From Promethearchaeota archaeon (GTDB lineage: Archaea; Asgardarchaeota; Lokiarchaeia; Sigyniarchaeales; SOKP01): 64,000 bases of DNA. The notes beneath the pieces were generated by a model that was given only the letters and a program-made list of their open reading frames with translations, was not told the DNA's origin and did no database searches. The DNA is taken from positions 15,809 through 79,808 of the forward strand of contig JAEOTA010000004.1 in assembly GCA_016840085.1 (NCBI GenBank), in the 5' to 3' direction. Below, in pieces: positions 1,002 to 52,623 of the stretch; within the stretch, counting starts at the first letter, position 1; the number at the start of each line of letters is the position of its first letter. Both the position numbers and the translations under genes were made by a program.

Positions 1002-1508
1002 TTATTCAATATTAAAAATTTTTAAAAATTTCTGAAAATCTTTTTCTATATCAATTATTGGTGTATTTGAAAAGCGTTCTAACTTGAGGTTTGATAAACA
1101 AATTATTCCAGAAATCATTTTTATATTTCCAGTTAATTGCTCATCAATCTCCTCAAATTTTTTGATACATAGAACAGTTGGATTGTTTAGATTCCTAAAT
1201 CCTTCAGTTAAACATATATCTATTTTGTAAGGCCCATTTTGAAGCCAATTTATAGTCTCATCTATAAATTTATCACTAAATTTTGAAAATACAGCGATCT
1301 CTCTATTCTCATTTTCAATGACCGAATAAGTTGCTCCAGCTTCAGTAAATTTATAAGAATCTTTTCCTTCCTTATCAACTTGGTGATCTTTTACATTTTT
1401 AATAACTGCAACATTATAATTTAAGTATTCTTTAAGTAGTTTTATTGCTTTTACTATAAAATTTGTTTTACCTGAACCAGAATATCCTACAATACCTATT
1501 ATTTTAAT
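1002..1508 (-). CDS. mobB: MobB-like P-loop protein (molybdopterin-guanine dinucleotide biosynthesis adapter family), apparent ATT start
   Basis: Absent from the ORF track. The minus-strand frame is open from TAA (1514..1512) to TAA (1004..1002). It reads (I)KIIGIVGYSGSGKTNFIVKAIKLL...DKEGKDSYKFTEAGA...CLTEGFRN, matching the MobB Walker A at the extreme N-terminus, the KDSY..AGA motif and the EGF motif. There is no ATG/GTG/TTG before the P-loop. ATT at 1508..1506 sits where Met is expected. Confidence 0.75.
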   Translation of the reverse strand: MKIIGIVGYSGSGKTNFIVKAIKLLKEYLNYNVAVIKNVKDHQVDKEGKDSYKFTEAGATYSVIENENREIAVFSKFSDKFIDETINWLQNGPYKIDICLTEGFRNLNNPTVLCIKKFEEIDEQLTGNIKMISGIICLSNLKLERFSNTPIIDIEKDFQKFLKIFNIE

Positions 1509-3728: not shown

Positions 3729-4001
3729 TTATTCTCTCCTTAAACTTTTATCTCTTTGACTTATTTGATGAGAATGAATCGCACAGCTTATACAGTAATA
3801 TTTGGTCTTAGTTGGAGCCTGAATTATTGTACCTGCTTTTTTCAATTCAGCATACATCCTTCCATCAACTAAAGAAACTCTCCTTGTTACGGCTTTCGCT
3901 TTACTTCGGGCGACAAAGCGACCACATTTACTACATTGAACTTTATTATATTGACCTTTTCTAGAACCACTTTTACCGCCACTTTTTCTTTTTTTCGGAA
4001 T
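3729..4001 (-). CDS. rps26e: 30S ribosomal protein eS26, apparent ATT start
   Basis: Absent from the ORF track. The minus-strand frame reads (I)PKKRKSGGKSGSRKGQYNKVQCSKCGRFV...YYCISCAIHSHQ, which is the eS26 MPKKR N-terminus plus two CxxC pairs. An in-frame TAG lies at 4013..4011, followed only by CTG ATC TTT ATT. Confidence 0.85.
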   Translation of the reverse strand: MPKKRKSGGKSGSRKGQYNKVQCSKCGRFVARSKAKAVTRRVSLVDGRMYAELKKAGTIIQAPTKTKYYCISCAIHSHQISQRDKSLRRE

Positions 4002-4148
4002 AAAGATCAGCTAGTTTTAATTTTTGTTTATTAATTATATAATTTCTAAAGAAATTGAATTGGACAAAACTTAAAAAATTTATTCTTTCATTTAGATTAT
4101 TAAGAGAATCAATAAATTTCTAAAAATACTTGACTTCATTAATTGGAA

Positions 4149-32105: not shown

Positions 32106-32546
32106 CTAAGCTAAATATACCACACAAAGTCCATCAATATTCTTTGTAACTCTCACTTTTAACTTTCGTGGAGGTTTTTGAATTCCTTGTTTCCAGATTC
32201 GTTCGTTTACTTCTTGAGAAATAATTAAAGATTCTGGTTTAAAGTGACGAGTCATGAAATCTCTAAGATATCTTATTGATTTTTTAGCCCATTTGTTTCT
32301 TGGGCCTTTTCTTGCTTTAGCAAGAGGGATTATATATATTCTTTCATCAATAATTTCTTCTTTAGGAACCTCTTCTTCCTCTTCTAGAATTTCAGCTTCT
32401 TCTTCAAAAACTTCACTTATTTCTTCCTCTTCAGTAATCTCATCTAAACTAAACTCTTCAATTTCTTCTATTTCTTCTTCGAGTTCGGATTCTTCTAGTT
32501 CTTCTTCCAAATCATCTAAACTAATTTCCTTTTCTTTCTTTGCCAT
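32106..32546 (-). CDS. rpl31e: 50S ribosomal protein eL31 with an acidic ~65-aa N-terminal extension as drawn
   Basis: The core ERIYIIPLAKARKGPRNKWAKKSIRYLRDFMTRH matches eL31. The upstream part of the ORF is almost pure E/D/I/L. Confidence 0.85.
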   Translation of the reverse strand: MAKKEKEISLDDLEEELEESELEEEIEEIEEFSLDEITEEEEISEVFEEEAEILEEEEEVPKEEIIDERIYIIPLAKARKGPRNKWAKKSIRYLRDFMTRHFKPESLIISQEVNERIWKQGIQKPPRKLKVRVTKNIDGLCVVYLA

Positions 32547-32580
32547 TTTTACTCAGAATACTTACATTTATAAATTATAT

Positions 32581-37429: not shown

Positions 37430-37848
37430 GAGAACATGTTTTAATATAGGATTTTTTTGAAAAATAGAATATCCCCTATCTTCTTATTCAAAAGTATTAA
37501 ATACTGTCTTGTCAAAGTTATACTTAATCCAATTAATATTGGGTGAAGAAACATGAAATCTAATTTAAAGAAAATAATACTATTGATTATATTTGGAGTA
37601 ATTTTATCATTTTGATAAATACAAATTTTTTTTTAAGTACTTTTTACTCCCAAGTTCTTTTAATTTTTGACAAAACTATAAAAATGCTTAACTCTTAAAC
37701 TACTATGACATAAAAATGTCGACATCGAAATTTCAATGATTATTCATTTTCAGCCAAAATTACATCTGGAAGTAAAGTAATTACAATATTTATTGTAAAT
37801 AAAAGAGTTGAATTAAAAATAAAATACAAAGTAAGATCTATATCAATT

Positions 37849-40248
37849 TTGATATATCTAATATTTGTTTTTGGTGTTTTTTCAATAGTTAAATTTGATG
37901 AATCGAAACCTACTTACAATTATAGCATTTTTGGTGAAAACTTTACAATTAAATCAAGTTCTTCTAAGTATACTAATGCTACGGTAATTTCGGATGACTA
38001 TACTAATTGGAATAATGATAATAGCTATGATCCTTCAATTGCTGTAGATGATGGTGGAAACCTTCATGTGGTGTGGCATGATCATACTAATGGTCCATGG
38101 GGTTCTGATACTGAGATAATGTATGTGAATTATTCTTCTTCAGCCGGATGGTCTAATGCTATTGTAATTTCGGATAACGGTACTAATTGGAATAATGGAA
38201 TTAGTGAAAATCCCTCAATTGCTGTAGATGATGGTGGAAACATTCATGTGGTGTGGCATGATCATACTGATGGTCCATGGGGGACTGATATTGAGATAAT
38301 GTATGTGAATCATTCTTCCTCAGCCGGATGGTCTAATGCTATTGTAATTTCGGATGATGGTACTAATTGGAATAATGATAATAGTAGGAACCCTTCAATT
38401 GCTTTAGATAGTGATGGAAACATTCATGTGGCATGGCATGATCTTACTGATGGTCCATGGGGAACTGATACTGAGATAATGTATGTGAATCATTCTTCCT
38501 CAGCCGGATGGTCTAATGCTACAGTAATTTCGGATGATGGCACTAATTGGAATAATGATGAGAGTATATCGCCTTCAATTGCCATAGATAATGGTGGAAA
38601 CATTCATGTGGTGTGGCATGATCTTACTGATGGTCCATGGGGAACTGATGGTGAGATAATGTATGTGAATCATTCTTCCTCAGCCGGATGGTCTAATGCT
38701 ATTGTAATTTCGGATGATGGTACTAATTGGAATAATGGTGATAGTAGGAACCCTTCAATTGCTGTAGATAATGGTGGAAACGTTCATGTGGTGTGGCATG
38801 ATTTTACTGATGGTTCATGGGGTACTGATATTGAGATAATGTATGTGAATCATTCTTCTTCAGCCGGATGGTCTAATGTTATTGTAATATCGGATGACGG
38901 TACTACTTGGAATGATGGGGCGAGTTATGAGCCTTCAATTACTGTAGATAATGGTGGAAACATCCATGTGGTATGGTATGATTCTACTTATGGTCCATGG
39001 ACAAGTGGTGCGGATACTGAAATAATGTATGTGAAATATTCTTCATTAGCTGGATGGTCTAATGCTACAGTGATTTCGGATGGATCTGGGGGTATCTATT
39101 GGAATGATGATGACAGTGAGTACCCTTCTATTGCTGTAGATAATGGTGGAAACGCTCATGTGGTGTGGCATGATTTTACTGATGGTCCATGGGGAACTGA
39201 TAGTGAGATAATGTATACATTCATCGGTGATATAGTACCAGTTATTATAATAAATTCTCCTACTCCAAATGAATATATTGGAAGTGTTGCTCCACACTTC
39301 AATATTTCCATTGTTGGACTGTTTTTAAACACTACATGGTATACTTTAGATGACGGAAAAACCAATATAACATTCAGCGGATTAACTGGAACAATCAATC
39401 AAACAGAATGGGCCAAGAAAGGAAATGGTACAGTGACTATTAGATTCTATGCGAATAATACCGCAGGTAAAGAGGGATATGATGAAGTAACTGTCTACAA
39501 AGATACCATTGCGCCAATTTCATCAATATCCTACATTGTCCATAAAGAACCAAATATGGTGAATATATCAACAACTTTTACATTAACTGCCGATAATGCG
39601 AGTGGATCTGGGGTTTCTGTGATTAGATATAAAATTAATGATTCCGGCTGGTTAGATTATAATTCCCCCTTTGACTTAGATTTATATGCGTATGGTGATC
39701 TTCTTATCTCGTATCAAGCAATCGATGAAGTTGGTAATATTGAAACAGTAAACACAGAACTGGTGGAATTGATGGGACCTCCTTCTGAACCATGTGAACT
39801 TGTTAAACTTTTGCAAGTGGAGATAACTGAAAATTCTTATTCGACTGAACACTTCAATTTCACGTTCTTAGTATTTAACGAGCTTGGACAAGCGATTGAT
39901 TTCGCAACAATTCAGATCTGGTGGAATGGAAATGATGTTTCTGATGATGTTGTTAATCTCGGAAATGGACTATATTTTGTATCTTTAGAACCCAAAACAG
40001 TAGCACCTGGAGAAGATCCAATCCTACTTAAAATGATAATCTCTGCTTCTGGATATGAAGATAAACTGTTTGAAACGTATCTTGCTGTTGATCCTGAAAC
40101 TTTAGAAAAAGAAGTAGGAAAAGGAGCTGAAGGAGTTCCTCTCGTAACAATCATTATCGCAATTATATCAACTGTAAGTGGAATATCAGTAGCCGCAGCA
40201 GCAGTAGTCCTATTGCGTAAAAGGAAACGAGCTAGTGAAGTTATATAA
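37849..40248 (+). CDS. surface protein: seven BNR/Asp-box-like propeller repeats, Ig-like modules and a C-terminal membrane anchor
   Basis: Seven copies of ~60 aa (SIAVDNGGNIHVVWHDxTDGPWGTDxEIMYVNHSSSAGWSNAxVISDDGTNWNN; SDDGTNW fits the Asp-box SxDxGxxW). C-terminal hydrophobic helix followed by RKRKR. Confidence 0.75.
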   Translation: MIYLIFVFGVFSIVKFDESKPTYNYSIFGENFTIKSSSSKYTNATVISDDYTNWNNDNSYDPSIAVDDGGNLHVVWHDHTNGPWGSDTEIMYVNYSSSAGWSNAIVISDNGTNWNNGISENPSIAVDDGGNIHVVWHDHTDGPWGTDIEIMYVNHSSSAGWSNAIVISDDGTNWNNDNSRNPSIALDSDGNIHVAWHDLTDGPWGTDTEIMYVNHSSSAGWSNATVISDDGTNWNNDESISPSIAIDNGGNIHVVWHDLTDGPWGTDGEIMYVNHSSSAGWSNAIVISDDGTNWNNGDSRNPSIAVDNGGNVHVVWHDFTDGSWGTDIEIMYVNHSSSAGWSNVIVISDDGTTWNDGASYEPSITVDNGGNIHVVWYDSTYGPWTSGADTEIMYVKYSSLAGWSNATVISDGSGGIYWNDDDSEYPSIAVDNGGNAHVVWHDFTDGPWGTDSEIMYTFIGDIVPVIIINSPTPNEYIGSVAPHFNISIVGLFLNTTWYTLDDGKTNITFSGLTGTINQTEWAKKGNGTVTIRFYANNTAGKEGYDEVTVYKDTIAPISSISYIVHKEPNMVNISTTFTLTADNASGSGVSVIRYKINDSGWLDYNSPFDLDLYAYGDLLISYQAIDEVGNIETVNTELVELMGPPSEPCELVKLLQVEITENSYSTEHFNFTFLVFNELGQAIDFATIQIWWNGNDVSDDVVNLGNGLYFVSLEPKTVAPGEDPILLKMIISASGYEDKLFETYLAVDPETLEKEVGKGAEGVPLVTIIIAIISTVSGISVAAAAVVLLRKRKRASEVI
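37969..39230 (+). repeat. tandem 180-bp coding repeat, seven units
   Basis: The GCTGTAGAT(G/A)ATGGTGGAAAC-type anchor recurs at 38041, 38221, 38401, 38581, 38761, 38941 and 39133. Units are highly similar at the DNA level. Confidence 0.9.
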
Positions 40249-51207: not shown

Positions 51208-52623
51208 TTAAATCCTAGATCTTTTTAAAGAATTTCTCTTATTAAAGGGAGGAACCGAATTAATACAATTTTTAAAAACTTCTTTCATTAAATTTTCACC
51301 TAAAGAGAGCATGAATGCTAGACCTTTACTACCATCTTTTCTAATAGTTTCTTTTTGACGAATTTCATATTTGATATCAAATTTTCCTTTAATATCCTCT
51401 AAGAATTTTTTGCTCCCACTTGTTATAAGAGTTTTTCCTTTCGACCCATCTCCGTCCCAATAACCAAGTAAAAACCCTAAATATATATTTAAGCTTGCTT
51501 TTAACTCTGGTAATCTTATATTAGAAGATTTGTTTTTCCCAACTATAAAACCAAGATTTTTCAAGTGTTGTACAAATTTTTTGCTTTTAAATTGAATCCT
51601 AATAGTGTCTTTAAATTCGAAATGCTCATCATAATTAAAATTAGAATCAATTATAGATACAATTCTAAAATGCGTAATTTTGTTAATTTTATGTATATCA
51701 AAACCAATATCCTTAGCAAACTTCAGTATGAGGTCTTGTGCATCATTGGACATTTCAATACCGAATATAACTTGATTAGAGTTTTTATCTAGAGTCATAT
51801 ATCCATCAGCGAAGATTAGTCCTAACCAATAACCTTTTAGTACAGAATTAATATTTTTAAAGTAATCCTCATTAAATTCTGATTGATGTCTTAAAATACC
51901 TTGGTTTGATTTTGGTAAGTCATTGAATTCACGATAACGGCTAAAAATATCTATTATAGTTGTTAAATCTAAATCCTGAAGCTTTCTTATTAAATTGTTT
52001 TCAAATTCTTGTAAAACATTTTCTGAAAACAGATAATGAGGATTATTATGAATATCGTATATACGGTCAGTTATATATGCGTTATATTTTCCAATTAGTC
52101 TACTCAGTGAATAATTTGTAATTTCAATTGATGCCTCTCTAAAAGTGATTATCTTTGTAATTTTTCGTTTTAGTTGCTCAATAAATTTCAACTGTTTACG
52201 AGGTGTAGTAAGTGTATTAAATAAATCTAAGCTATTCTTATAACTATAAGTTTCAATGAGATAGAAAATATTTTGACTTAATATTCCAAATCTTTGTTCT
52301 AAAGTTTTTTTCCATTTTTTTATTATTTTTTTTGAAATTTGAAAACTAGGATCATTATTAATTTTTAATTTTATATTTTGTGTAATATATTGATCAGAAT
52401 ATCCCAATATTCGACTTAATTCTTTATCAGTTAATTTAATAGACACCAAGGAGAGATGTACTATTCTTTCGATTTCGTGTTTTAAATCGTATATAAAATC
52501 TATCGTATTATAGCTAATATGTCTAATAGGCTTCTCAGAAAATTTACTGCTGCCAAAATATTTCCATTTAGAATGAAATACAAAAAAATCGGGATCTTCT
52601 TGATTGGCAATAATCTTTAACAT
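51208..52623 (-). mobile_element. free-standing double-motif LAGLIDADG homing-endonuclease-like gene with N-terminal duplicated HTH-like segments
   Basis: Two LAGLIDADG motifs, YWLGLIFADGYM and YLGFLLGYWDGDGSKG, about 110 aa apart. It is wedged between an intact gene and a relic of that gene's 3' end. Confidence 0.7.

Follow-up and report, generated by a model that had tools for sequence, protein, structure and literature searches.

Where does translation of the eS26 gene begin in this Promethearchaeota genome? The gene lies on the minus strand of the window, by which we mean the whole 64,000-nucleotide stretch of DNA analysed here, and lacks a canonical start codon. Read 5′ to 3′ on that strand, an in-frame TAG (4013–4011) closes the frame upstream of eS26 and is followed by CTG (4010–4008), ATC (4007–4005), TTT (4004–4002), ATT (4001–3999) and CCG AAA AAA AGA, with PKKRKSGG translated directly after the ATT. 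The stop-to-stop open reading frame (ORF) covers positions 3729–4010 (93 codons) and has its first ATG, GTG or TTG at ORF codon 52 (MYAEL); downstream of the TAG, none of these three codons occurs in frame until protein codon 49. The initial annotation had noted that ATT stands in place of the Met of the conserved MPKKR, and the letters are as it described them. On the evidence set out below, translation very probably starts at this AUU (4001–3999), which would be read by initiator Met-tRNA. From the Pfam and PDB matches, the cysteines and the pN/pS values we delimit the coding sequence as 3729–4001 (minus strand), comprising 90 codons, the first of them ATT, plus the TAA stop (3731–3729).

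Comparison with known eS26 proteins places the residue encoded by the ATT at position 1. The translation matches the Pfam family PF01283 (S26e) with E = 3.4e-14 and 53.6 bits (cut-off 27), residues 1–89 aligning to profile positions 1–93 of 108, and profile position 1 is the residue encoded by the ATT. A phmmer search of the PDB matched 71 distinct eS26 sequences at E ≤ 0.001, and the ATT residue is aligned with Met1 of the archaeal S26e 9fs6_b (MPKKRENRG). Both zinc-ribbon CxxC pairs are present (QCSKCG and YCISCA). The protein resembles eukaryotic and archaeal eS26 (PF01283; PDB 9fs6_b, 3j7a_3) in its full-length match from residue 1, its zinc ribbon and its MPKKR-type N-terminus, and differs from them in the initiation codon alone. 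A profile match finds one copy of the gene in the assembly, a metagenome bin of 4.68 Mb in 89 contigs that is 98.8% complete with 7.6% estimated contamination.

Upstream of the ATT lies an imperfect Shine–Dalgarno (SD) element, AGCTGATC in place of the perfect AGGTGATC (4005–4012, minus strand), in which GCTGA is followed by 5 nt and then by ATT. The 3′ end of the 16S rRNA of the same genome is ...GGATCACCTCCT, which identifies the eS26 element as an SD sequence (AGGTGATC) with one internal mismatch; over 4012–4005 the element reads AGCUGAUC, the SD-repaired form being AGGUGAUC. The eS26 core ends 5 nt before the ATT, and the cores of canonical starts in this genome lie 4–8 nt upstream. Across 60 orthologues of ATH type (ATT, ATA or ATC), GCTGAT at −10 to −5 is 88–97% conserved. 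The idea that AGCTGAT is a general SD sequence of the genome was rejected: 11 of its 578 copies precede a plausible start, near the level of control motifs, compared with 74 of 1,755 for GGTGAT. A weak start behind a weak SD element is odd for an abundant ribosomal protein.

About 65–77 nt 5′ of the ATT is a T-rich TATA-like block, TTTTTTAAGTTTT (4066–4078, minus strand), that is partly kept in the genus; a 'ttttt.a..ttt' block is conserved in the consensus of 60 eS26 upstream regions. This block is a possible promoter, and a leadered eS26 mRNA would follow from it. RNAalifold applied to 47 eS26 leaders detected no conserved RNA structure around the start.

We gathered orthologous eS26 loci from 40 related genomes, 80 public contigs and ten further sister-family genomes, the gene being found in 40 of 41 relatives. 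At the codon aligned to Met1, the 87 non-duplicate Promethearchaeota loci have ATT (60 loci), ATG (13), TTG (6), ATA (5), ATC (2) or CTG (1), and every one of these codons is a one-base neighbour of ATG. TTA, CTT and GTT, with which this AT-rich genome commonly encodes Leu and Val, never occur at this position in the 87 loci. The comparison of starts across relatives that had been suggested with the initial annotation therefore bears out its reading, with a near-cognate codon held at the same aligned position and ATT the usual choice. An SD-like motif lies a few bases 5′ of the Met1-position codon in nearly all of the 87 loci. In many ATG-type relatives AAGGAGGT replaces the GCTGAT-type element, and in a few loci (L062, L106 and L110) AAGGAGGT occurs together with an ATT start; L024-type loci have GAGGTCAT, without the CTG. 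Three loci (L019, L093 and L101) carry a 1-nt indel in the spacer between the SD-like element and the ATT, indicating that the element is non-coding.

Among the 60 ATH-type orthologues, identity at the three positions of the start codon is 1.0, 1.0 and 0.95, compared with 0.58 at the third position of the codon that follows; the synonymous sites of the codons adjoining the start vary freely (CCG, CCA, CCT, CCC). In the same orthologues pN/pS is 0.16 for codons 2–48 versus 0.17 for codons 49–90, at pS values of 0.64–0.77 that place synonymous sites near saturation. Codons 2–48 are thus as constrained as codons 49–90, implying translation of the stretch that precedes the first ATG.

A maximum-likelihood tree of 83 eS26 coding sequences, built without the start codon and unrooted, has at least 12 changes of start-codon state. 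It contains a clade of 65 sequences (SH-aLRT 97) with ATT in 55, ATA in 5, TTG in 2, ATC in 2, CTG in 1 and ATG in none. At the Met1 position, 16 genomes sampled from the order's three other families have ATG (12), GTG (2), TTG (1) or ATT (1). Most likely, then, ATG was the ancestral eS26 start and ATT was derived and afterwards retained, a direction read from an unrooted tree. That the switch from AUG to AUU has been held across the genus despite saturated synonymous divergence argues that the weak start is selected.

Initiation might instead occur two or three codons upstream, at ATC (4007–4005) or CTG (4010–4008), giving MFIPKK or MIFIPKK and leaving the aligned ATT as a plain Ile codon. 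In this genome both upstream codons are in-frame near-cognates, most relatives read CTG ATT TTT ATT, and some public records carry 93-residue MIFIPKK forms. Against this, the 1-nt indel in L019, L093 and L101 makes an in-frame TGA, so that the aligned ATT alone remains; L083 has a TAA immediately 5′ of its CTG start; and L024-type loci, L062, L106 and L110 are without such upstream codons. Outgroup genomes, moreover, have their ATG exactly at the aligned ATT position, and the ATC and CTG lie inside the SD-like element, hence with zero spacer. We regard an upstream start as improbable. Less probable again, to the point that we would be surprised by it, is exclusive use of the downstream ATG at codon 49 (MYAEL), or an AUG absent from the DNA that is created by RNA editing or splicing. 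An RNA-level event gains some credit from a 29-nt hairpin insertion within the eS26 genes of three related metagenome-assembled genomes (MAGs), which needs to be removed from the RNA or bypassed. However, the codons before Met49 are under the same constraint as those after it and hold the first zinc-ribbon CxxC, the match to Pfam and to the PDB is complete from position 1 onwards and leaves nothing for splicing to supply, and editing would require different changes for the ATT, ATA, ATC, TTG and CTG alleles.

There is only the slightest chance that the gene is a pseudogene or that an error of sequencing or assembly turned ATG into ATT, as the missing canonical start and the estimated contamination of a metagenome bin might lead one to suspect. 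Sixty independent assemblies, generated by many projects, share the ATT, and the gene is single-copy here and present in nearly all relatives. Its low pN/pS reflects strong purifying selection, and its zinc-ribbon cysteines are intact. All of this agrees with the view in the initial annotation that an essential ribosomal protein gene of this kind is unlikely to be a pseudogene. Taken together, the series of codons at the Met1 position, the SD element, the indels and the pN/pS values exclude sequencing error, a pseudogene, a Met49 start and an upstream CTG start as working explanations. Initiation at the aligned AUU of an intact gene that is predicted to be expressed is the best explanation.

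The 29-nt insertion is of interest in its own right. It breaks the frame after ...CGRFVAR in three other Promethearchaeota MAGs (L104:1596–1624, L106:1055–1083 and L110:1596–1624, approximate coordinates), and its removal restores ...VARSKAKAV. The insert forms a hairpin, the stems of which differ between copies by compensatory changes (AGTG/CACT, AGTAAT/ATTACT and AGTAAAAA/TTTTTGCT), and the exon sequences on either side of it are complementary. We regard the insertion as a candidate bulge–helix–bulge mini-intron in a protein-coding gene; folding z-scores of the insert in the three MAGs were not significant.

Does the eS26 start reflect a wider habit of the organism? Confident canonical starts in the genome comprise 883 ATG, 160 TTG and 56 GTG codons and show a G-rich SD signal between −14 and −8. 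We applied a strict test that took GGTGA followed after 4–8 nt by a codon that opens a coding-like ORF 100 or more codons long, with an upstream stop close by. This returned 64 canonical codons and 45 non-canonical codons without a canonical start within 15 codons; 28 of the 45 are ATA, ATT or ATC, and most of the others lie next to such a codon in the same frame. With the most frequent spacing after GGTGA, 6 nt, ATH accounts for 16 of about 24 non-canonical codons. The reversed control motif AGTGG gave 10 canonical and 2 non-canonical codons.

Of 2,969 coding-like ORFs, 259 lack any canonical start over the first 25 codons. Among the first ten codons of these 259 ORFs, ATH makes up 40 of the 88 codons (45%) preceded by SD, defined here as an SD 5-mer at 4–8 nt, versus 331 of 2,502 (13%) elsewhere (odds ratio 5.5, p = 7e-13). 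For control motifs made by permutation, ATH makes up 7 of 41 codons. Across the genome 33 distinct ORFs fit the strict SD and ATH pattern, versus 182 SD-led canonical starts. These 33 ORFs put the share of genes with ATH starts at about 1% as a lower bound, and the excess of ORFs with long leads suggests a share of up to about 5%. AUU initiation therefore emerges as a genuine habit of the organism, as the initial annotation had supposed, with the correction that AUA, AUC and occasionally CUG are included. In a 1.2-Mb sample of a complete sister-family genome (G032), 4 ORFs combine SD with ATH and 42 combine SD with a canonical start, indicating that the habit is not confined to the genus. Two cruder approaches were set aside. 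An earlier genome-wide SD test, run on every lead codon in ORFs of 120 codons or more, gave ATT at only 6.2% against a background of 3.8%, the signal being diluted by antisense shadow ORFs; tests with a coding-potential filter took its place. Scoring of leads by codon log-odds ranked many antisense ORFs high and eS26 only 462nd, and was kept as a source of candidates.

Ten candidates with SD and a non-canonical start were scanned against Pfam. In eight genes other than eS26, the Pfam domain begins 2–20 residues after the proposed ATT, ATA, ATC or CTG: a PIG-L deacetylase (CTG), a Ras-like GTPase (ATA), a ThiF/E1-like protein (ATC), an SMC/Rad50-like ATPase (ATC), a GFO/IDH/MocA oxidoreductase (ATT), an ornithine cyclodeaminase (ATC), an E2-like UQ_con protein (ATT) and NeuB (ATA), the last being the weakest of the eight with its Pfam domain from residue 36. 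The next canonical start in the scanned candidates is 17–71 codons downstream, past P-loop, Rossmann or catalytic motifs. The E1-like ThiF gene (L144:304–1041, equivalent to G000:C25:15531–16268 of this genome, minus strand) has an ATC start with the TGA of GGTGA in frame 6 nt before it, making an upstream start impossible. Its arrangement of A(G/A)GTGA, 6 nt and ATT, ATC or ATA recurs in 21 of 21 genus genomes, and 7 of 8 outgroups have ATG. Orthologues of the PIG-L gene start with CTG, TTG, ATG, ATT or ATC. We rejected the idea that the pattern is common to small-subunit proteins specific to the TACK and Asgard archaea, since eS25 (TTG) and eS30 (ATG) start normally in this genome.

The initial annotation had treated eS26 as the second independent case within 3 kb. 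The other is a MobB-like P-loop gene (1002–1508, minus strand), with a probable ATT start at 1508–1506 behind GTGAG. Its ORF (1002–1511) opens TAA CTC ATT AAA ATA ATA GGT, the first canonical start is codon 132, and Pfam PF03205 matches with E = 1.6e-22 and profile position 1 at ORF residue 4. Four relatives have TGA directly before ATT xTT ATT and no canonical start, whereas others have an in-frame GTG or ATG, and in at least nine relatives an in-frame GTG lies two codons upstream that could be either the start or part of the SD. The lack of a canonical start up to codon 132 thus stands, but the case is less clean than that of eS26. The suggestion that eL31 is a further ATT case falls away: the ORF at 32106–32552 (minus strand) has an ATG at its third codon. 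Read from this canonical ATG, eL31 has an acidic stretch of about 65 residues (MAKKEKEISLDDLEEELEES...) as an N-terminal extension to its conserved core. Equivocal, finally, is the surface-protein gene flagged at 37849, a large, repeat-rich ORF (37714–40248, plus strand); the TTG at that position is canonical, which counts against the claim, but it falls inside the hydrophobic core of the signal peptide. A possible start is the ATA at 37819, which would give MKYKVRSIS followed by the hydrophobic core and has GTTGA 7 nt upstream. Among the roughly 45 genes of the window we count two sure cases (MobB and eS26) and one possible case (the surface protein).

The same kind of start is found in the gene for aIF1 (SUI1, PF01253; L262:1420–1743, equivalent to G000:C81:64195–64518, plus strand), which is single-copy and starts with ATT. 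No ATG, GTG or TTG occurs before the SUI1 domain in this genome, where the sequence reads TGA TAA GAG AGT ATT AAA GAC. All 22 genus genomes examined have AGGTTGTGA, two more codons and ATT AAA GAC GAC; the TGA is followed directly by a second in-frame stop, TAA, in 21 of the 22 and stands alone in one. In sister families the aIF1 start is ATA, GTG or TTG, with a clear ATG in none of seven sampled. The initiator tRNA was rejected as the cause of relaxed start selection: the only CAU tRNA found by pattern (G000:C22, minus strand, about 51652–51786) has three G–C anticodon-stem pairs and two apparent introns, and looks like a normal initiator. Aragorn reported 13 tRNAs in the 4.68-Mb assembly, most tRNA genes probably being hidden by introns or unassembled.

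We propose that pairing of the imperfect SD element of eS26 with the 16S rRNA 3′ end sets the AUU in the P site, where initiator Met-tRNA would read it with a third-position mismatch and yield Met-Pro-Lys-Lys-Arg, as in other archaea and in eukaryotes. The ancestor of the order would have had AUG in eS26, and the genus lineage would have switched to AUU and kept it, with occasional drift to AUA, AUC, UUG and CUG. eS26 is one instance of a lineage-wide habit that takes in a few percent of genes, nearly always SD-led and on AUU, AUA or AUC, aIF1 among them. We infer the insertion of Met at the AUU, the weakness of the start and the dependence of output on the aIF1 level. By analogy with the systems considered next, aIF1 may hold down its own production, and expression of every AUH gene, including eS26, may follow the aIF1 level.

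AUU-type starts are rare in bacteria (infC), and near-cognate starts exist in eukaryotes, in which eIF1 gates near-cognate initiation and is itself autoregulated through a weak context. AUG, GUG and UUG are the starts usually attributed to archaea, and Sulfolobus 30S complexes bind AUU mRNA without aIF1 and reject it with aIF1 (PMC4705826). The AUU start of bacterial infC gives IF3 translational autocontrol (Butler et al. 1987, as described in PMC4705826). The eS26 case is like infC in being an essential translation gene on a conserved weak near-cognate start behind an SD element, and the parallel extends to a fidelity factor on such a start, here aIF1 with its invariant ATT across the genus. 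Unlike infC, the archaeal system has aIF1, aIF1A and aIF2 instead of IF3, eS26 is a ribosomal protein and not a fidelity factor, the habit spans an estimated 1–5% of genes compared with two or three per genome, and autoregulation is a proposal. The likeness to eukaryotic near-cognate initiation lies in the homology of aIF1 to eIF1, in the use of Met-tRNAi at one-base neighbours of AUG and in stringency set by factor level. Here, however, SD pairing selects the start in place of scanning and Kozak context, and AUU, AUA and AUC dominate, whereas CUG is the strongest near-cognate in eukaryotes (PMC11706245).

A more specific reading, which we put forward tentatively and consider unlikely on present evidence, is that AUU, AUA and AUC starts form an aIF1-titrated regulon in Loki-type Asgard archaea, in which aIF1 would limit itself through its invariant AUU and eS26 would be a member. 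Eukaryotic eS26 sits in the mRNA exit channel, touches and stabilises the message 5′ of the start codon, and has a reported link to Kozak recognition; the role of archaeal eS26 beside the SD duplex is unstudied (PMC7531240). If the regulon reading were true, ribosome composition at the site that reads the start context would be coupled to start-codon stringency, and the genus-wide third-position U of the eS26 start and the single SD mismatch would be tuning and not drift.

Non-AUG initiation is already known; what would be new, judging from the genomes compared here, is its systematic use by an archaeal lineage and its fixation in a ribosomal protein. A full-text literature search found no paper on ATT or ATA starts in Asgard archaea, and AUU goes unmentioned in a 2020 review of archaeal initiation. 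At NCBI, the 90-residue S26e entries of the eS26 clade begin MPKKRK, that is, with ATT read as Met. Public N-termini within the clade nevertheless disagree, giving proteins of 90 (MPKKRK), 93 (MIFIPKK), 98, 111 and 62 (MVARSKAK) residues (P0002, P0010, P0013, P0020 and P0098). Public annotation of the AUU start is thus ahead of the literature but inconsistent. Near-identical eS26 proteins also carry differing taxon labels (Hod-, Hermod-, Thor-, Odin- and Lokiarchaeota).

Gene finders limited to ATG, GTG and TTG truncate or miss genes with ATH starts, and mis-annotated starts affect marker-gene completeness as well as structural work on Asgard E2 and E1-like enzymes and small GTPases. With third-position near-cognates in use in a lineage close to eukaryotes, it becomes testable whether stringency control by eIF1/aIF1 predates eukaryotes.

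Conserved sequence reaching an upstream in-frame stop was also seen in two HdrA-like ORFs elsewhere in the genome, at G000:C24:114103–114483 and G000:C82:84118–86076 (both minus strand). The stop is TGA in the former and TAA in the latter, and the TGA of the C24 ORF could be a selenocysteine codon.
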